In this document: one piece after another, positions 1 to 8,215 of the stretch
Position numbering within the stretch: the stretch's first letter is position 1
How the letters are laid out: every line of letters begins with the position of its first letter
Source: Fluviicola sp.
GTDB taxonomy: Bacteria > Bacteroidota > Bacteroidia > Flavobacteriales_D > Crocinitomicaceae
Length of the DNA: 64,000 nt
Reading direction: 5' to 3'
NCBI RefSeq assembly: GCF_029266855.1
Contig: NZ_JAQSWB010000002.1
Coordinates: 544,106 to 608,105, forward strand
Program-made: the position numbers and the translations under genes
Notes under the pieces: generated by a model
Seen by the model: the letters and a program-made list of their open reading frames with translations, nothing else
Databases searched by the model: none
What the model was told of the DNA's origin: nothing

Positions 1-295
1 ACGTTTGTCATATTTCTTTCTTTAAGATCCTGGTTCTTCTTCAGGATTTTTGGTTCCTGCAAAGTTAATTGGTTTTTTTAGTTCTGAAAATACCGAACCA
101 AAAAAACTTAAGATTTAACATTTGTTTGCGGTTCAAAAGTAACAGTGGGATTTCTTAATGGAAACAGATAATCGGCGAGTGGTAGAAGAGATAAGGTGAG
201 CAGCTGGATTTTTGTCCTAAACGAGAATAATTAGTCGGGTAAAGATGAAGTCAAGAAATTTCGAAAAACACCGTGTTACGGGGAGGTGAGATTTG

Positions 296-351
296 TGTAA
301 CAATCGGATTTTATTCTGTAAGGTTTCGTAGATAGTTAAGGGTCACCTTTG
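296..351 (+). promoter_or_regulatory. Putative activator-dependent promoter P1 (TGTAA-N16-TGTAA-N22-CACCTTTG) upstream of the CsbD-like gene
   Basis: TGTAA at 296 and 317, CACCTTTG at 344; same spacing as the sites at 818 and 1825. CACCTTTG is a one-mismatch variant of the Bacteroidota -7 box TAnnTTTG. Confidence 0.65.
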
Positions 352-388
352 GCAACAACAAAGAGTATTCATTCTTAAAATAAAAGTC

Positions 389-622
389 ATGTCAGCAGAA
401 AAAAACACAAATTCTCAAACGGATAACAAAACAGAGTCATTTAAAATTTCAGGTGATTGGACAAAACAATCTGTTCAATTAAAAGAGAAATTCAGTCAAT
501 TAACAGATTCGGATTTGAAATTTGAACCAGGTAAGGAAAATGAATTACTTCAACGCGTTGAAACAAAATTGAATAAAAAGCGTGATGAGGTGATTAACAT
601 CATTAACAAATGTCAGGTATAA
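389..622 (+). CDS. CsbD/YjbJ-like general stress protein
   Basis: 77 aa; G-D-W...QLKEKFSQLTDSDL...GKENELLQRVETKLNK pattern matches the CsbD-like family. Confidence 0.75.
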   Translation: MSAEKNTNSQTDNKTESFKISGDWTKQSVQLKEKFSQLTDSDLKFEPGKENELLQRVETKLNKKRDEVINIINKCQV

Positions 623-817
623 ATATTGGTTTAGTTAGAGCGCAAACAGATTACTATCAATTCGACTAATAGTTATCTGAGTTCTTTCTAGGGAAACGCA
701 ATCGAGTGAAGAGGATTGCGTTTTTTTTATTATAGTTTTTTCTGAAGTCCAAACTAAAGGTCTTCGTGAAAAGATTCAAAAAGTTGAAGGTTTTACTTAT
801 TGAAATTGTGAGATATA

Positions 818-873
818 TGTAATAATCGAAATTACTTGTGTAACGCTCCCTGTTCATCAACAGACCACCTTTA
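818..873 (+). promoter_or_regulatory. Putative activator-dependent promoter P2 (TGTAA-N16-TGTAA-N22-CACCTTTA) upstream of the lipoprotein gene
   Basis: TGTAA at 818 and 839, CACCTTTA at 866. Confidence 0.6.
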
Positions 874-911
874 CATGAGTGAAAACACATTCACATTTTA
901 ATCTTATAACC

Positions 912-1352
912 ATGAAAAAACACAAATTGTCTTATCTGATTTTACCTCTTTTGATCCTCATTCTTGCGGGTTGTTCTGCAACCAAAGCAGACGATGTGGA
1001 TAAAGCAGCTGAAGAGGTAGAAGATGCAAAATTGAATCTGGATGAGGCAAACAGGCAATACGCTAAAGAAGTGGCTAGTTACCGGACGTCAATGGAAACG
1101 GACTTGAGAAATAATAAGTTGAGGATCGCAGAATTAAAAGAAGAAAGAACGGATGCAAAAGCTGACGCACTCGCTGACAGAAATGCGAAAATTGAAGCAA
1201 TCCAGAAACGCAACGACGAATTGGATTCCCGCATGAGACAGTATAGAAGTGATAACCGGGAGAATTGGAAAGAGTTTAAAAGCGAATTCAATCACGATAT
1301 GGATGAATTAGGAAAAGCTTTCAAAGATCTTGGACAAAACAATGTAAAATAA
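912..1352 (+). CDS. Coiled-coil lipoprotein, uncharacterised (stress-associated)
   Basis: ATG at 912 gives MKKHKLSYLILPLLILILAG-C (lipobox LAGC), followed by a charged helical region. The ORF track starts upstream at 879. Confidence 0.75.
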   Translation: MKKHKLSYLILPLLILILAGCSATKADDVDKAAEEVEDAKLNLDEANRQYAKEVASYRTSMETDLRNNKLRIAELKEERTDAKADALADRNAKIEAIQKRNDELDSRMRQYRSDNRENWKEFKSEFNHDMDELGKAFKDLGQNNVK

Positions 1353-1439
1353 TACAAATAAACAATTTGACAGGATGAAGGTTCTTTATTGCTCAAATCA
1401 ATAAGTAGAGTAGTTATTCTGAGAATTGGTTAGTGGAAG

Positions 1440-1465
1440 GAGTCCGCATCGTCGGACTCTTTTTT
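1440..1465 (+). terminator. Intrinsic terminator
   Basis: GAGTCCG-catcgt-CGGACTC followed by a T-run. Confidence 0.6.
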
Positions 1466-1478
1466 AATAACTGAAAAC

Positions 1479-1793
1479 ATGGAAAATCACATCAAAAAAT
1501 TGCCATTGTACGCCTTTTATGCGTTTTTTCTTCGGGTACAGTCTTTGCTAAGCAATAAAGACAGAAATCACCGGATCCATCAGCTAGAAACAATGAAAAT
1601 GAAGGATCGAATATCCAAAATCGGAACCAGACACCCCGAACTTTCAAAGTATTTGAATGATATGCCAGAGTTTTCTCACAATTTAAATGATCCGAAAATC
1701 AGGCTTAGAGATCTTAGAGGATATAAGAACCATTTACTGGAACTTCTTGAAAAATATGAACTTGAATCTCATAAGGATTCCTGGTTCATATAA
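1479..1793 (+). CDS. Hypothetical small protein
   Basis: 104-aa ORF with a HPELSKYLNDMP segment resembling small Bacteroidota hypothetical proteins; start uncertain. Confidence 0.55.
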   Translation: MENHIKKLPLYAFYAFFLRVQSLLSNKDRNHRIHQLETMKMKDRISKIGTRHPELSKYLNDMPEFSHNLNDPKIRLRDLRGYKNHLLELLEKYELESHKDSWFI

Positions 1794-1824
1794 TTACTAA
1801 AAAATGATAAAAACCAGTGATTGA

Positions 1825-1880
1825 TGTAATCTTTCGCTTTTAGTATGTAATGATATTGAGTGGAAATGACTGCACCTTTG
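1825..1880 (+). promoter_or_regulatory. Putative activator-dependent promoter P3 (TGTAA-N16-TGTAA-N22-CACCTTTG) upstream of the porin-family gene
   Basis: TGTAA at 1825 and 1846, CACCTTTG at 1873. Confidence 0.65.
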
Positions 1881-1915
1881 TTCAGTGGAAATACTTTCAC
1901 ATTTAATCATTTAAA

Positions 1916-2557
1916 ATGAAAAAAACAGGTTTAATATTATTGACCTTAATCGGATTTGGAGTTACAGTTATTGCACAGGAATCAGAGAAATATGACCGCC
2001 GTGATAAATTCACTGTGGGAGCAAGAGTCGGCGCGAATTTATCAAACGTTTGGGATTCCGAAGGAGAAGAGTTCGAAGCAGACGCTAAGTTGGGATTTGC
2101 GGGCGGTGTTTTCGCAAGTATTCCAATCGGGAGATATATGGGAGTTCAGCCGGAGATTATTTTTTCTCAGAAAGGATTCCAAGCTTCAGGAATACTACTT
2201 GGAACAACATATTCATATGAGAAAACTACAAATTGGATCGATATTCCTTTGCAGTTTCAAATCAAGCCAATTGCGTTCTTAACTATTTTGGCCGGCCCCC
2301 AGTTCTCTTTCCGGGTAAGTGAAAGAAACGTCTATAGATATGGAAGCAATAGTGCGGCACAGGAAGAAGAATTCGAAAATGACAATATCCGCAAGAATAT
2401 CTTAGGGATTTCAACCGGATTTGATATTAACATTTATCATGTGGTTGTTTCGGGGAGAGCTTGTTGGGACCTTCAAAATAATAAAGGTGACGGAACTTCA
2501 AGCACACCGCGTTACAGAAATCAGTTTGTACAATTGACGGTTGGCTTTAAGATCTAA
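1916..2557 (+). CDS. Porin family / outer-membrane beta-barrel protein (PorT-like, OMP_b-brl_2)
   Basis: Signal peptide, G-A-R-V-G-A-N-L-S, VQPEIIFSQKG, alternating beta strands, C-terminal TVGFKI. Confidence 0.8.
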   Translation: MKKTGLILLTLIGFGVTVIAQESEKYDRRDKFTVGARVGANLSNVWDSEGEEFEADAKLGFAGGVFASIPIGRYMGVQPEIIFSQKGFQASGILLGTTYSYEKTTNWIDIPLQFQIKPIAFLTILAGPQFSFRVSERNVYRYGSNSAAQEEEFENDNIRKNILGISTGFDINIYHVVVSGRACWDLQNNKGDGTSSTPRYRNQFVQLTVGFKI

Positions 2558-2647
2558 TATTCACAGTAGAAAAAATGATGAGTTATGGATCAGGGTTTAA
2601 AATTGGCAGGGCGTATTTTTAAGTTTATCATCAAAAAATCAATAAAT

Positions 2648-2995
2648 ATGAAAACAGGAGAAGACAAAATGAAGAATGACGGAAAATCCGGAAATACTTC
2701 AAGAATCGTAGGTTCTTTGGTTGCAGGCGCAGCAGTAGGTTTGGCAGCTGGAATTTTACTGGCACCCGAAAAGGGTAAAAAAACACGGGCTAAATTAATG
2801 GACGATGCGAAAGACCTGACAAATAAACTAAAGGATAAAGCAAACGATTTCAAAGACAAAGCAAGTAATTTCAAAGATCAGGCAAGTGATCATATTGAAG
2901 AAAAAGCAAATGAGATAAAGGATAAAGCAAACGATTTAAAGGATAAAGCAAGTGATGGAATTGATGCTGTTACTGCTAATCTTAAATCATCCTGA
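2648..2995 (+). CDS. YtxH domain-containing protein (general stress / gas-vesicle-like)
   Basis: GSLVAGAAVGLAAGILLAPEKGKKTRAKL hallmark, then KDKAND/KDKASN repeats. ATG 2648 preferred over 2585. Confidence 0.85.
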   Translation: MKTGEDKMKNDGKSGNTSRIVGSLVAGAAVGLAAGILLAPEKGKKTRAKLMDDAKDLTNKLKDKANDFKDKASNFKDQASDHIEEKANEIKDKANDLKDKASDGIDAVTANLKSS

Positions 2996-3027
2996 CCGAG
3001 GTGAACTAAATATAAATTAACGGACAT

Positions 3028-3066
3028 GGGTCATTTGGTAAGTTTTGCCGGATGACCCTTGTTTTT
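3028..3066 (+). terminator. Intrinsic terminator
   Basis: GGGTCAT...ATGACCC stem followed by TTGTTTTT. Confidence 0.5.
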
Positions 3067-3182
3067 GAATTGAAATTCACCGGAAAATAGTAATTTATTC
3101 CAAATCAATGCGGAACACTGTTAAAAGATTAGGTCCGGTGATTAATTATCGTATCTTCACAAACATTCAAAAACAACCGGTT

Positions 3183-3752
3183 TTGAAAATTTATATAAAA
3201 TACATGGTCAGCATCCGCTGCAAAAACTTGGTTGGAATTGAACTGAAAAAACTGGGAGTTGTTATGCCTAAAATAAATCAGGGCATGGTGGAGTTCCAGG
3301 AAAAGCTGTCCAAAGCACAAAAAGACCAGTTTAAGAAACGCATTCTAAACCTAGGATTTGAGGTTTTGGATGACATCAATAGTGATTTGTTGGATCGCAT
3401 TTCAGGATTAACTACTGAGCTGCTTTCCAAGAACCAGGAAATTCCCCGGCAGGACTACCCTGCATACTTGATTAAAAAATTAGAATTCGATTATTTAGAA
3501 ATTACGAATTTATTTTCCGAAGTACATGGGATCAATTTACCTCAATATATCGCAATCCAGCAGGTCGAACGTATGAAAGAAATGCTTCTGTATGAAGACC
3601 TGAAGGTAAAGGAAATAGCGGTACTGCTTCATTACAAAAACGGAGCGCAGTTAACACGAGTATTCAAAACGATTACAGGTTTGACCCCATTCTATTTCAA
3701 AAAGATGAAGGAAAAACGCCACGAGATTCGGATGGGAAATGAATCCGAGTAA
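3183..3752 (+). CDS. AraC-family transcriptional regulator with N-terminal HMA-like (YMVSxRC) domain
   Basis: C-terminal double HTH (LKVKEIAVLLHY...QLTRVFKTITGLTP). TTG at 3183 aligns with the TTG start of the paralogue at 4220; the ORF track starts at 3108. Confidence 0.85.
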   Translation: MKIYIKYMVSIRCKNLVGIELKKLGVVMPKINQGMVEFQEKLSKAQKDQFKKRILNLGFEVLDDINSDLLDRISGLTTELLSKNQEIPRQDYPAYLIKKLEFDYLEITNLFSEVHGINLPQYIAIQQVERMKEMLLYEDLKVKEIAVLLHYKNGAQLTRVFKTITGLTPFYFKKMKEKRHEIRMGNESE

Positions 3753-3793
3753 AAAACAATATAACACATACTTATACTAAAGATTAAATCCCT

Positions 3794-4153
3794 ATGAAGA
3801 GCCAAGCAGATTACAATGATTCGGAAATAGAAAAAGCTAAATCTCACATTGTCGTCGAAATTATCCAATACGTGCCCAACGCTATTCTGAGTAAAACAAT
3901 TATAAAAAAGACTACGGGAAATATTACCGTTTCGTCATTGGACGCCGGAGAAGAATTAGAAGAAAAACACTCCCCCTTCGATACGTATGTACAAATAATC
4001 GATGGAACTGCAGAACTCGTTATAGATAAGAAATTATTTACATTGAAATTAGGACAGGGTATTATTATTCCGGCGCACGCCAGACATAAATTAAATGCCC
4101 ATGAGCAATTCAAGATGATTAGTACGACGATCAAAAGCGGTTACGAAGACTAG
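3794..4153 (+). CDS. Cupin domain-containing protein
   Basis: EKHSPFDTYVQIIDGTAELVI...GQGIIIPAHARH cupin motifs. Confidence 0.85.
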   Translation: MKSQADYNDSEIEKAKSHIVVEIIQYVPNAILSKTIIKKTTGNITVSSLDAGEELEEKHSPFDTYVQIIDGTAELVIDKKLFTLKLGQGIIIPAHARHKLNAHEQFKMISTTIKSGYED

Positions 4154-4219
4154 CAAGCAGGGATCTGAAGAGTTCCCATTAAATATTTTATTGACTGTTA
4201 TAAAAAAAACCTTCAAGAT

Positions 4220-4780
4220 TTGAAATTATATATCAAATATATGGTTAGCCAGCGTTGCAAAATGGTCGTAAAAGAAGAATTGCTTAAGCTTGGTTTGCAC
4301 ACTGTTGTGGTTGATTTGGGAGTGGTGCAGATCACTGAAGAGATTTCCGATGAAGATCGGGAGAACCTGAAGGTGAACTTGCTTGGCTATGGCCTGGAAC
4401 TCCTGGAAGACAAAAAAAGCATTTTGATCGAGCAAATTAAAGGAGTGATTGTCGAAATGATCCATTATTCGGACGAAATGCCCAAAGTCAATTACTCGGA
4501 CTACATCAGTGAAAAGCTTAACTATGATTATACTTACCTTTCCAATGTGTTTTCCGAAGTGAAAGGGATTACGATCCAGCAATTTATCATCATAAACAAG
4601 ATAGAACGTGTCAAGGAGCTTTTATTATATGATGAACTGAATTTGACTGAAATATCCTATATGCTCAATTACAGCAGTGTAGCCCATTTGTCAAACCAAT
4701 TCAAGAAAGTGACCGGGCTGTCCCCTTCGTTCTATAAACAAATGAAACAGAAAAGAAATAATAACCTGGAGAATCTCTGA
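4220..4780 (+). CDS. AraC-family transcriptional regulator with N-terminal HMA-like (YMVSQRC) domain
   Basis: LNLTEISYMLNYSSVAHLSNQFKKVTGLSPS AraC signature; TTG start. Confidence 0.9.
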   Translation: MKLYIKYMVSQRCKMVVKEELLKLGLHTVVVDLGVVQITEEISDEDRENLKVNLLGYGLELLEDKKSILIEQIKGVIVEMIHYSDEMPKVNYSDYISEKLNYDYTYLSNVFSEVKGITIQQFIIINKIERVKELLLYDELNLTEISYMLNYSSVAHLSNQFKKVTGLSPSFYKQMKQKRNNNLENL

Positions 4781-4858
4781 TACTTGTTGGATTTTGAATT
4801 TCACTGTGTTATTTAGTTACGTATATTCGTGTCGAATGCTTGGATTTAGGCGAATAAG

Positions 4859-5368
4859 ATGAAAACTGCAAGATATACAGCAACTTTAATAGGATTGATA
4901 ACGACGGTAATATGCGGACTAGTCTCATTTACAGTTTTATTACCGTTTTTAACTCTATTACCAACAGCGGTACCATTGGAATTTATCTCAGGATTGATTT
5001 TTGGAGAAAGTAATTACCCAAATAAATTTAAATTAATTCTATCATTGGAATTAACTCTCCTTTTAGTTTTATGTGCTTGGTATTTCAAAAAGCTGATTAA
5101 ACAGAGGCAGGAGAAAAAGAAGCTTGAAACTAAATCATTGATTATATTTTTCATTATCCTTCAGTTTGTAGTGCACCCGATCGGATTCTATATTTGGTTG
5201 CTCAATACTCCAGAAATGGACCCCTCGGATTCAATGATAGGATTTTATATTAGTGAAACTTTCCCATACAGCGGATGCTTTTTTATTTTCTTGGGTATTG
5301 TAATCGATTTGATAAGAAACCGGGAAATAAAAGAAACCGGCTCCGCTAATGCAGGCCGGCTTTCTTAA
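4859..5368 (+). CDS. Hypothetical membrane protein (about 4 TM)
   Basis: 169 aa with hydrophobic segments; TATATTCG -7-like box upstream. Confidence 0.6.
   Translation: MKTARYTATLIGLITTVICGLVSFTVLLPFLTLLPTAVPLEFISGLIFGESNYPNKFKLILSLELTLLLVLCAWYFKKLIKQRQEKKKLETKSLIIFFIILQFVVHPIGFYIWLLNTPEMDPSDSMIGFYISETFPYSGCFFIFLGIVIDLIRNREIKETGSANAGRLS
5331..5366 (-). terminator. Intrinsic terminator of T9SS cargo copy 1
   Basis: AAGAAAgCCGGC...GCCGGTTTCTT stem on the minus strand, followed by a T-rich tract. Confidence 0.5.
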
Positions 5369-5380
5369 GTTTAGCTTTAG

Positions 5381-8215
5381 TTATTCGTAAATAACTTTAA
5401 CCGATTTGAAATCCTTGTCGCTCTTAAATTCGATCAGGTAAATACCTTTCTGGTATCCTGTCAGATCGATTTCTTTCTCGCGGACTTTTGCTTTGGGTAA
5501 AGACAGTACCTTTTGTCCCATAAGCGAATAAACATCAATGGTATATTCCTCATCTACGTTAATTGAAACCTTGAATTTTCCGTTATTCGGATTGGGGTAA
5601 ACGGTAATCTCCGAAGCATTTTCCAGTCCCCACGGCTTAATTTCCTCAGTAGATTCTTCTTGTTTTCCATTTTGCATCTTCAAACCCGGGCTATTTCCGG
5701 GATAACTGCAAGGGTGAATAAACGCCTCGAAGTAATTGGAAGAGTTGGTTGTGGATGCAAAACCAGGATTAAGATCAATGTATGTTCCTGCACGATACGT
5801 AATCTTGGAAGTGGGACCAACTTTGGATGTGGAAATAATTTGATTGATCACCTCGTAAAATGCATTGGTGTTTTGAGCAGCTGTAAATTCAAACGCCGTA
5901 TTTCCCGGACAAAACAGATCGTGCTCCCAGATTCCGCGCCCGATGGTGGAAACACGCAATTTATTTATTTTGTAGTTGATTTCTAACCCCGAGACAGGAA
6001 TGTTTGGCAGGTTGACACCCAACTTTGTCCAATAACAGTTTGCAGGATTTGTTAAACTAATGGTAGACTTGTCTGCATAGTAGATTCCTGCATCGGTTGC
6101 TACGTAAACTCCGCCATTACTTCCTTTTTCAAACACAACCTGCAAAACACGAATGTTTGGTAATCCCCCTGAACCGGGAATCCCCGCAATATTATTAAAT
6201 ACAGGAGAATTTGGATTCGTGTAATCGGCTCTGATCACTTCAAGAGGTGGCCACACTCCTCCGCGAGTCAAACACACAATGTTCGGATTGTTATTATCTA
6301 TAGCTTGGAGACTGGAGTTGTTATAATCATCCAACTCCTTCCAACTGTTCTTAACGTTCGTGGCAGAAGGGTCAAGCATGTTCGTACTCCGGTATAGTTT
6401 GCCATCATAGGTCATATTGTTCCCCTGAGATACATAGCAATAACTTGCATTGCTTGGTGCTGGTAGAATTCCCCAGATGAAATACTGGTTCGAAATAACG
6501 GGTGATGGAAACGTTTTGAAATCTGAAATTTGCTCGATCAAACTCGAAGAATATCCCCTGTTGTCAGAGCGATACAAATCCTCATATAATAAACCTGATA
6601 CATTTGTTGCAGCTTTACAGTAAAGGATATTCGGATAGGCCTTATTCTGAGCGTAAGTTACACCAAAGTCGTTGCTGGGAGGAAATGCAGTATACGTATA
6701 CGAACCTGCTAGGCCTCCCGTTGAAGAAACAGCGGGTACACTTTGTTGATGTGCTGCCCACACGTAATTGGAGTTGGAATAATCGATTAATGGTTTCATA
6801 CCATCACCGCCAAAAACTGTTTCCCAGGCCGGGATCCAACTTCCGGAATAAACTCCACTACTTAAAACCGATCCGTCATGATCTAGTCCCATGATAATTT
6901 TTTCCGGATTCAAAGCGTCATTAGAAGATCCGGTGACTTTTGCAACACCTAAACCATTGCTTCGGGTAGACAAAGTCGCCACCTGATCAGATGAATAATT
7001 GACACCTCCATGAGTTGTTACATATACTTCATTGCTACAAGTGCCACAAGTGGAACGCGGGGTGATGAAGTATTCCACATCTACATGGTAGGGAGTAGGA
7101 CTGCCGGTTGAAACCCAGGTCCAACTTACACCACCGTTAGTAGATTTGTAAAAATAAATCCCTTGGGCTGCATACATAACGCTGGCATTGAAATTTGAAA
7201 CCGCAAATGCATATCCTTCACCGACATGATTAGCAAACGATGATAACAAGGTAGGAACCCCAAAGCTTGTAAGATCATATTGATATAAAGCAGCAGATGA
7301 GTTGCGCTGGATGACATATAAACTATTCGGTGCATTATCTGAAACAGCCAAACTTACAAGAGTAACCGCTGTGTAAGCGGGTTGATTCGGAACACTCGTC
7401 CAGGAACTCCCGAGGTTAGTCGTATAAGCAATATTCCAGGTTGATCCATTTTTATAACTAACATACAAATGAGAGCCTCCGTCTGTGCGGAATTCCATAT
7501 CGTAAATGGATCCGTTCAATACTTTTGACCAGGTTACCATACTCATACTGTTGATGTTGGTACTTACATAAAGACCAATGGATGTCGCAAGATAACCTAC
7601 ATTCGGTGCATTCGGATCGATCAGGATTTTTTGCAGGACTGCAGGTTCGCCGTTGGCTGGATTAACAGGATCCAAATCCACGTAATCTGCAATAATGTGC
7701 CAGGTAGCTCCCGCGTCGATTGTCCTGTAAAGCCCGCAATTTTTACCAATTGCATTATCAGAGTCGTACAAAGATCCTCCGGGAGCAGAACAAGCATACC
7801 AGGTAGTTTCATTATCCGGGGCAAATTCGGCCCATTTACAACCCGACCGCGGCCATAAGTCTGATCCTGCATTCGACCAGTTTTGTCCTTTGTTGGAAGA
7901 GTAAAATAAACCACTGACTGAAGACCAGCACATGAGTTTGTTGCTATTCGATTTGTGGATAACGATTCCACGAATAACACCAACACCCAAATCTCCACCA
8001 CCAATGGAAGTTAACCCTGAATTTGGTTTGTTGTAGGGCCCCAATTCCATCCAGGAATCCATATTCCCCAATGATTTCGATGTGGGAGTTCCTTTTTTTG
8101 AGGCAACTGCTAAACTGTTATTGTACTCACGGGTTGTCCCGTTCGGAGCAATACGTGGTTCCCAATATTTGAGCCATTTCCGGTATTGGGTGTATTCACT
8201 TCCTTCCGCATTCAT
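5381..8215 (-). CDS. T9SS type A sorting domain protein with BNR/Asp-box (VPS10/sortilin-like) beta-propeller, copy 1; 5'-truncated (no signal peptide)
   Basis: Asp-boxes YSSNKGQNW, YRTIDAGATW, YKSTNGGVSW; AGTYIDLNPGF; C-terminal VYPNP...GIYLIEF CTD. The frame stays open upstream through [11 protein letters not shown] (CTG at 8323) to an in-frame TGA at 8339-8341, with no ATG/GTG/TTG start or h-region. Confidence 0.85.
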   Translation of the reverse strand: MNAEGSEYTQYRKWLKYWEPRIAPNGTTREYNNSLAVASKKGTPTSKSLGNMDSWMELGPYNKPNSGLTSIGGGDLGVGVIRGIVIHKSNSNKLMCWSSVSGLFYSSNKGQNWSNAGSDLWPRSGCKWAEFAPDNETTWYACSAPGGSLYDSDNAIGKNCGLYRTIDAGATWHIIADYVDLDPVNPANGEPAVLQKILIDPNAPNVGYLATSIGLYVSTNINSMSMVTWSKVLNGSIYDMEFRTDGGSHLYVSYKNGSTWNIAYTTNLGSSWTSVPNQPAYTAVTLVSLAVSDNAPNSLYVIQRNSSAALYQYDLTSFGVPTLLSSFANHVGEGYAFAVSNFNASVMYAAQGIYFYKSTNGGVSWTWVSTGSPTPYHVDVEYFITPRSTCGTCSNEVYVTTHGGVNYSSDQVATLSTRSNGLGVAKVTGSSNDALNPEKIIMGLDHDGSVLSSGVYSGSWIPAWETVFGGDGMKPLIDYSNSNYVWAAHQQSVPAVSSTGGLAGSYTYTAFPPSNDFGVTYAQNKAYPNILYCKAATNVSGLLYEDLYRSDNRGYSSSLIEQISDFKTFPSPVISNQYFIWGILPAPSNASYCYVSQGNNMTYDGKLYRSTNMLDPSATNVKNSWKELDDYNNSSLQAIDNNNPNIVCLTRGGVWPPLEVIRADYTNPNSPVFNNIAGIPGSGGLPNIRVLQVVFEKGSNGGVYVATDAGIYYADKSTISLTNPANCYWTKLGVNLPNIPVSGLEINYKINKLRVSTIGRGIWEHDLFCPGNTAFEFTAAQNTNAFYEVINQIISTSKVGPTSKITYRAGTYIDLNPGFASTTNSSNYFEAFIHPCSYPGNSPGLKMQNGKQEESTEEIKPWGLENASEITVYPNPNNGKFKVSINVDEEYTIDVYSLMGQKVLSLPKAKVREKEIDLTGYQKGIYLIEFKSDKDFKSVKVIYE

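Follow-up and report, generated by a model that had tools for sequence, protein, structure and literature searches.

Three promoter modules with one shared architecture, here called P1, P2, and P3, lie within the stretch of the Fluviicola sp. genome that we analyzed (the window: 64,000 nucleotides [nt], positions 544106 to 608105 of contig C10 in a 4.3-Mb, 14-contig genome). They precede genes for a CsbD/YjbJ-like small protein, a lipoprotein, and an outer membrane protein (OMP). We consider it likely that they are activator-dependent sigma-A promoters in a conserved stress/envelope regulon of Bacteroidota, read by a dimer of a small regulator in which an HMA-fold domain is joined to an AraC-type DNA-binding domain. 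What the analysis shows is the motif itself, how it is conserved and spaced, its association in genomes with the regulator family, and the modeled fold of the regulator; from these we infer binding, activation, where transcription starts, and the signal.

Architecture of the promoter modules

Each module contains two TGTAA pentamers spaced 21 bp apart (296/317, 818/839, and 1825/1846), and CACCTTT(G/A), the sequence of the putative -7 box, starts exactly 27 bp past the start of the second pentamer, at 344, 866, and 1873. A search of the window for TGTAA-N16-TGTAA-N22-CACCTTT, a pattern of 17 fixed bases, returned starts at 296, 818, and 1825 and so reproduced exactly the coordinates in a first-pass annotation that had described three promoters of identical spacing. 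Outside the fixed bases, the three copies agree pairwise at only 17, 12, and 10 of 38 positions. Given this low identity, we regard them as independent instances of the motif and not as duplications, which is also what that annotation had held. It had missed that the half-sites are longer than TGTAA: the distal half-site approximates TGAGAT-T-TGTAAC and occupies 287-301, 809-823, and 1816-1830.

All three modules are on the plus strand. P1 (284-351) has its distal half-site at 287-301 (TGTAA at 296-300), its proximal half-site at 308-322 (TGTAA at 317-321), and a -7 box, CACCTTTG, at 344-351, with transcription predicted to start near 356; it scores 59 bits against the weight matrix described below. 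P2 (806-873; 51 bits) has half-sites at 809-823 and 830-844 and the box CACCTTTA at 866-873, with a predicted start near 878, while P3 (1813-1880; 50 bits) has half-sites at 1816-1830 and 1837-1851 and again the box CACCTTTG, at 1873-1880, with a predicted start near 1885. From the distal TGTAA to the start codon, the distance is 93 nt for the CsbD/YjbJ-like gene, 94 nt for the lipoprotein gene, and 91 nt for the OMP gene. This fixed distance of 91 to 94 nt, together with the terminator hairpin that closes each unit, bears out the earlier view that the elements are promoter-like. A minus-strand match to TGTAAC-N22-CACCTTT at 2516-2483, antisense in the 3′ part of the OMP gene and not recorded previously, has neither a distal repeat 21 bp upstream nor a matrix match and is probably due to chance.

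A candidate regulon in this genome

The exact 17-base pattern occurs four times in the genome, namely at the three window positions and at C1:381061(-), before a gene for a 79-aa lipoprotein; the reversed-sequence control gave none. A 69-column weight matrix built from 21 exact sites found 10 matches above 12 bits in this genome and, again, none in the reversed sequence. The further sites precede genes for a 275-aa Ser/Gly/Gln-rich protein, a paralog of the window lipoprotein, a DUF892 (YciF-like) and OsmC unit, a GH130 protein with a 781-aa glycosyltransferase, a DUF4142 and DUF2383 pair, and a second OMP barrel. Half of the 10 sites have one of the genome's seven small AraC genes within 3 kb; among them is a second cluster of sites on another contig (C1:1111180 and 1112230), upstream of the AraC paralog at C1:1109513. 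Judged from annotation, the gene content linked to the sites is stress-like. Comparable gene sets in other phyla are under the control of general stress sigma factors, as in the sigma-B, RpoS, and EcfG regulons. The regulon surmised in the first-pass annotation therefore stands as a regulon-like gene set and falls as a local one, with about 10 promoters here and a module found phylum-wide.

A search for direct repeats also surfaced two tandem arrays with a 21-bp period (C1:973605-973735 and C6:184391-184563) that contain TGTAA...GAGAT...TTGTAA and look like 7-residue protein repeats.

Recurrence of the module beside a small AraC family

A scan of this genome and its relatives, which the first-pass annotation had proposed, showed the module across Bacteroidota in addition to the 10 sites here. 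Searched against the genomes of 61 relatives, the exact pattern matched in 15 genomes from five genera and five families, with one match when the pattern was read backwards. In a blind test, the relaxed pattern TGTAA-N16-TGTAA-N23-ANNTTTG gave 63 matches, against 6 in the control, in 200 genomes spread over the phylum. We then took 10 kb on each side of 54 matching loci in other genomes and clustered all open reading frames (ORFs) of at least 60 aa without reference to annotation. The top recurrent family was the small AraC type found in the window, present in 17 sampled genomes, followed by a heavy-metal P-type ATPase (8), a cupin (7), and a 118-aa lipoprotein (6), with CsbD, GH130, SDR, and YtxH proteins in 4 each. 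Recurrent receiver proteins near the sites have no DNA-binding domain. No LytTR family was among the recurrent clusters near these 54 places or in 24 regulator-centered loci (20 elsewhere and 4 in this genome), and the sole sigma-like cluster at the 54 places came from 3 genomes, its example locus being one without a matrix site.

The association also holds in the reverse direction. Among 20 loci centered on orthologs of A2, one of two small AraC proteins encoded in the window (at least 55% identity; chosen without regard to the motif; site cutoff, 10 bits), 12 hold at least one matrix site, compared with 0 of 20 control loci at arbitrary places in sample genomes. The one-sided Fisher probability, reckoned by hand, is ~2e-5, a figure overstated by the nonindependence of related genomes. 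A further set of 80 ortholog loci, from records including Chryseobacterium, Flavobacterium, Aquimarina, Algoriphagus, Chitinophagaceae, Saprospiraceae, environmental Bacteroidales, and Balneolaceae, yielded sites in 67, with 135 sites in 0.86 Mb and none in the control. This corresponds to ~157 sites/Mb, compared with 2.3/Mb across the present genome. Blind neighbor enrichment and both reverse tests thus uphold the proposed link between the modules and AraC proteins of the YMVSxRC type.

In roughly 30 of the 80 ortholog loci (our own count), a site begins 8 nt past the last matched codon of the regulator and precedes the next gene, which encodes a cupin, a PAS kinase followed by a receiver, or a second AraC copy; from its position, the site would drive that gene. 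At these sites the extended distal half-site overlaps the last codons, which encode a conserved C-terminal L-E-D/N-L/I; the arrangement has been lost at the A2 gene in the window. In at least 8 loci, a site lies ~80 to 90 nt before the regulator's own start, a placement that would amount to autoregulation in those genomes. The A2 orthologs are 55 to 81% identical across Bacteroidota. The regulator family occurs in 110 of 201 genomes, the present one included, and, from a reading of two tables, in all 21 sample genomes with matrix-confirmed sites.

Site geometry and the -7 box

We examined 169 sites in regulator-centered loci that had been chosen on their upstream half only (control, 2), so that the downstream half could be read independently of the choice. 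The repeat period is exactly 21 bp in these as in the three window copies. The distal half-site approximates TGTGAATTATGTAAC, while the proximal one keeps AATTnTGTAAy and loses the TGTG part; both consensus readings come from sites selected on the upstream half only. Each half-site is bipartite over ~15 bp, as expected given the two helix-turn-helix motifs of an AraC domain. Downstream, TTTG lies at an offset of 52 from the distal TGTAA in 78 sites and at 51 in 26 sites, and hardly ever at another position.

The commonest box is CACCTTTG (25 of 169 sites). Position 2 is A in 83% of the 169 sites, and positions 5 to 8 are T, T, T, and G in 96, 95, 67, and 50%; the core of the sigma-A box (A at 2, TTTG at 5 to 8) is thus present. 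Its first base departs from the consensus T: among 105 boxes of the form nAnnTTT, it is C in 56, G in 25, T in 20, and A in 4, so that the T-to-C change remarked upon in the window extends across the phylum. No conserved TTG is found ~19 bp upstream, and the proximal half-site occupies the usual place of the -33 element. The sigma-A box TAnnTTTG of Flavobacterium is located at -12 to -5 (PMC9723704), and the starts near 356, 878, and 1885 were predicted from this position. By the same analogy, the proximal TGTAA would be at -39 to -35 and the distal one at -60 to -56. The F. psychrophilum start-site tables in that study include an AraC gene of 180 aa next to the gene for a receiver; they list no start site at the small AraC locus, and their printed promoter strings span only 61 nt.

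Palindromes are located at two of the predicted transcript starts on the plus strand, GTGAAAA-N4-TTCAC at 879-894 (P2) and GTGGAAA-N3-TTTCAC at 1885-1900 (P3), and none is at P1. The general form, (T)GTGAAAA-N4-6-TT(T)CAC(A), occurs 3 to 8 nt past the -7 box in 15 of 204 sites (0.035 expected from shuffles), 13 of them in other loci. It could be the operator of a second dimeric regulator or a weak hairpin at the 5′ end of the mRNA (-4.3 and -4.4 kcal/mol). One half of the palindrome, TGTGAAA, is similar to the upstream portion of the distal half-site.

The candidate regulators A1 and A2

Two small AraC genes with TTG starts are encoded on the same strand downstream of the P3 unit: A1 (3186-3752, +; YMVSIRC) and A2 (4220-4780, +; YMVSQRC). 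Both proteins have the ~100-aa C-terminal domain with two helix-turn-helix motifs that characterizes the AraC/XylS family, and both exceed the Pfam HTH_18 cutoff of 33.6 bits, A2 with 58.4 and A1 with 42.3. They are 41% identical in alignment. A1 breaks 17 of 37 conserved columns of the DNA-binding domain, including recognition helix 2, whereas no other member breaks more than 7. This helix, YSSVAHLSNQFKK, is nearly invariant in stress and metal types alike, and A1 reads YKNGAQLTRVFKT in its place. In this genome, the stress type has H156 and N159 in recognition helix 2, and the CxxC type has Y and T at these positions. A1 probably does not read TGTAA, and the divergent helix and broken columns leave A2 as the credible reader of the two neighbors. 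On these sequence grounds, A2 is the best local candidate activator. The genome encodes seven such paralogs in all, four of them A2-like (68 to 76% identity or better), two A1-like, and one with NMVCDRC. The earlier nomination of the neighboring AraC proteins as activators is therefore sustained in the family tie of A2, but the neighbors are not the sole candidates among seven paralogs, and A1 is divergent.

An AlphaFold2 model of A2 (186 residues), built on a 42-sequence alignment with a predicted local distance difference test score of 90, is predicted to comprise an N-terminal domain (residues 1 to 62), a linker helix, and a seven-helix AraC domain. The modeled N-terminal domain has a beta-alpha-beta-beta-alpha-beta topology (E2-6, H11-23, E28-32, E35-38, H44-55, E60-62), with MVSxRC in the first (beta1-alpha1) loop. 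Foldseek matched the C-terminal domain to the DNA-binding domains of MarA, SoxS, AdpA, and AraC (root mean square deviation, 1.9 to 2.9 Å), and the best non-AraC matches were the metallochaperones GolB, Atx1, and CopZ (target-normalized template modeling scores, 0.64 to 0.71). The Pfam HMA profile gave E values of 0.05 to 0.15, below threshold, on paralogs with CxxC and nothing on A1 or A2. We therefore call the domain HMA-fold, on the strength of the model and Foldseek, and do not name it a member of the HMA family; no solved structure of a small HMA-fold/AraC protein was found. In place of the metal-binding loop MxCxxC, A1 and A2 have MVSxRC, an SxxC in which the first cysteine is lost and one cysteine (Cys13) is kept, while the NMVCxRC paralogs carry CxxC. 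In many other genomes, although not here, the regulator gene is followed by genes for a PAS kinase and a receiver.

Metal-type paralogs with the same operator design

In seven loci selected by motif, a CxxC paralog (NMVCxRC) is encoded immediately upstream of a site that precedes a gene for a P-type ATPase or HMA protein, with the repeat-N16-repeat-N22-box arrangement between regulator and pump. We also retrieved 20 CxxC paralog loci regardless of motif, of which 15 have a P-type ATPase homolog within 4 kb. The pattern [T/C][G/A]TAA-N16-T[G/A]TAA follows the regulator within 170 nt in 9 of the 20 (background, 8 of 1832 windows), and 6 of the 20 also have a -7 box at N22-23 (background, 0 of 1832). 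The stress-derived matrix found only 3 of these 20 loci; since the pentamer is variable (TATAA, CATAA), the repeats had to be sought with the looser pattern. The metal-type operators have the canonical TAnnTTTG in the same architecture.

The present genome contains one such locus, in which the NMVCDRC paralog (C1:947624-948163, -) is followed by CATAA-N16-CATAA-N22-GAACTTTG and then by a gene for an 809-aa P-type ATPase. Upstream of the paralog are genes for Cys-rich, metal-binding-like proteins. We take the locus for a metal-resistance unit whose operator follows the same design with a variant pentamer. As far as the compared loci indicate, stress genes and metal pumps share only the regulator family and the repeat-box architecture. 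Such sharing is hard to explain otherwise, which argues that the small AraC family reads the repeats. The two sets appear linked by a common operator design that differs in its pentamer and by regulators that differ in SxxC versus CxxC.

Proposed mechanism and alternatives

We propose that the housekeeping sigma factor reads these promoters through a -7 box, cAyCTTTG, that avoids the consensus T at its first base. The distal half-site would be strong and bipartite, and the proximal one weaker, ending at about -34, where a -33 element normally sits. The likeliest occupant of both is a dimeric protein with a metallochaperone-like (HMA-fold) N-terminal domain and an AraC domain of two helix-turn-helix motifs; A2 (4220-4780) is the nearest protein of this kind, and the genome encodes three close paralogs elsewhere. 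Joined through its N-terminal domains, the dimer would hold the strong distal site, and occupancy of the weak proximal site would bring contact with RNA polymerase. That contact would offset both the missing -33 element and the nonconsensus base at which the box begins, in the manner of AraC at araI1-araI2.

Several observations weigh against this proposal. In this genome, a search of the 400 nt before each of the seven small AraC genes returned no module, and we thus see no autoregulation here. One genome (G131) has 13 pattern matches and no AraC gene within 10 kb of them, and one family (f32) has strong sites and only distant regulator homologs. At its first base the box favors C, and in its middle CC or TC; mere weakening would not call for so specific a preference, which could point to another polymerase specificity factor. 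Public RNA runs included none with this sequence, which was met only in soil and rhizosphere metagenome contigs, at 16% or less of the sampled words. Finally, co-location cannot separate a regulator from a co-regulated member of the same island, an ambiguity that the metal-type paralogs mitigate and do not remove.

This last point leads to the alternative that some protein encoded elsewhere, for example, one of the LytTR type, reads the repeats and that the small AraC genes are mere cargo or targets of stress islands. LytTR-type regulators do use direct repeats ~21 bp apart, and sites directly before or after AraC genes in many genomes would suit a target as well as a regulator, as would the many sites of G131 without a nearby AraC gene and the lack of an autoregulatory site here. 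We nevertheless think this improbable, since blind enrichment returned no other DNA-binding family near the sites, the regulator family is in every genome with confirmed sites, and the pump promoters beside CxxC paralogs share the architecture while having only that family in common with the stress genes. A slightly smaller chance may be given to a dedicated alternative sigma factor that recognizes CACCTTTG, alone or with an AraC activator, in which case the C at the first base would serve recognition and not weakening. That CACCTTTG is the commonest box, that C is favored there and not merely any base other than T, and that the middle of the box is C-rich all suit such a factor; yet the invariant core and the position are those of a sigma-A box, position 1 can also be G, T, or A, metal-type operators of the same architecture have the canonical box, no sigma gene recurs near the sites, and two equal direct repeats are not the signature of a sigma factor. 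LytTR proteins and sigma factors were both considered as readers and set aside, neither being recurrent near the sites.

That A1 is the activator, or that A1 and A2 act only as an obligate heterodimer, seems very unlikely. Adjacent pairs of the A1 and A2 types do occur twice in this genome (C10:547288/548325 and C10:524746/525458), but A1 breaks 17 of the conserved columns, recognition helix 2 included, against 7 or fewer in every other member, second copies beside A2 orthologs elsewhere are A2-like and not A1-like, and the module is present in genomes without the A1 type. A chance origin of the three copies, or their descent from a local duplication, can be given next to no weight. Only their proximity favors it, against four exact 17-base matches with none in the control and conservation of the module across the phylum sample; duplication itself is ruled out by the unrelated flanks.

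Comparison with known regulators

At araI1-araI2 of the E. coli araBAD promoter and at the tandem sites of RhaS, MelR, and XylS, a weak proximal site abuts the polymerase at a poor core promoter. By analogy, the modules resemble these sites in having two direct-repeat half-sites with a 21-bp period, each ~15 to 17 bp long and bipartite, and they would resemble AraC-type class II promoters in that the weaker proximal site abuts the upstream promoter element of a poor core promoter. The modeled DNA-binding fold is that of MarA, SoxS, and the AraC C-terminal domain. The differences from AraC lie in the sensor, predicted to be an HMA-fold domain of ~62 residues and not a cupin/jelly roll, in a protein of 186 residues; in the promoter, which is of the Bacteroidota -33/-7 type; and in the targets, ~10 or more stress/envelope units and not one catabolic operon.

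In gene content, the set overlaps the sigma-B regulon of Bacillus, the RpoS regulon of gammaproteobacteria, and the EcfG regulon of alphaproteobacteria in CsbD, YtxH, OsmC, DUF892/YciF-type proteins, small hydrophilic proteins, and lipoproteins. Unlike in those regulons, a transcription factor-like site precedes a housekeeping-type box, and no sigma or partner-switching genes recur nearby. The modeled N-terminal domain has the topology of CopZ, Atx1, and GolB, with the motif in the beta1-alpha1 loop, and the CxxC paralogs are encoded beside P-type ATPases. In contrast to HMA metallochaperones, A1 and A2 have lost the first cysteine, the Pfam HMA profile stays below threshold even in the CxxC paralogs, and the domain shares one polypeptide with an AraC DNA-binding domain. 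The usual regulators of metal pumps belong to the MerR, ArsR, CsoR, and CopY families.

Transcription units in the window

All features in this part of the window are on the plus strand, and hairpins with T-runs delimit three separate units. P1 is placed before the gene for the 77-aa CsbD/YjbJ-like protein (389-622), whose sole family match is weak (NCBIfam PRK10428 [YjbJ]; E value, 1e-4, below the cutoff) and which has no Pfam match; orthologs in relatives have kept the module. The unit ends in a hairpin and T-run at 690-728 (-15.1 kcal/mol; z, -5.6). Under P2 is the gene for the 146-aa lipoprotein with an sll1863-family stress response domain (912-1352; NF052504, 42.2 bits against a cutoff of 35), a paralog of which, at C1:~1111084, is likewise downstream of a site. 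Its terminator hairpin and T-run are at 1435-1470 (-15.3 kcal/mol; z, -3.7). Between this terminator and P3 lies an ORF of 104 aa (1479-1793; 65 aa from the ATG at 1596) with no family match and no module upstream.

The first gene of the P3 unit encodes the 213-aa outer membrane beta-barrel (OMP_b-brl_2; 1916-2557; PF13568; E value, 7e-19), which, too, has a paralog downstream of a site, at C10:~501690. A gene for a YtxH-like protein (2648-2995; PF12732; E value, 1e-21) is probably the second gene of this unit, since neither a module nor a terminator was found between the two. A strong terminator at 3023-3066 (-24.4 kcal/mol; z, -6.4) follows, and the AraC genes are therefore not simply cotranscribed with the P3 unit. 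Between A1 and A2 on the same strand is a gene for a 119-aa cupin (3794-4153; Cupin_2, below the cutoff), and a cupin is near the regulator in 7 to 8 loci of other genomes. Directly after A2 is a gene for a 169-aa multipass membrane protein (4859-5368) with no family match; after A2 orthologs elsewhere, a motif site followed by a gene for a cupin or for a PAS kinase is found at this position. Rfam returned no RNA family within positions 1 to 6000 of the window.

Implications for stress control in Bacteroidota

Bacteroidota dominate guts, soils, and oceans. In a search of full-text literature, the coverage of which leaves out most subscription journals, neither the motif nor the regulon nor an HMA-AraC fusion was found described, in keeping with the first-pass annotation, which knew of no description of the operator or regulon; nor did we find a described general stress regulator for the phylum. 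It is possible, although we put this forward only tentatively, that Bacteroidota as a phylum have a general stress response with the A2-type protein as its master activator, a functional counterpart of sigma-B, RpoS, and EcfG in the form of a transcription factor. Such a protein may have evolved from a one-component metal sensor, its CxxC having degenerated to SxxC and its input having been rewired; in many genomes, the new input would be the PAS kinase and receiver encoded next to it.

The module offers a precise DNA motif, a defined gene set (~10 promoters here), and a named candidate regulator whose orthologs reach 81% identity across orders, and with these the question of a stress switch in Bacteroidota becomes directly testable. 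It also shows how the -33/-7 promoters of these bacteria may become dependent on an activator, and it links a stress regulon to an HMA-AraC family of metal regulators that appears to be uncharacterized as well.

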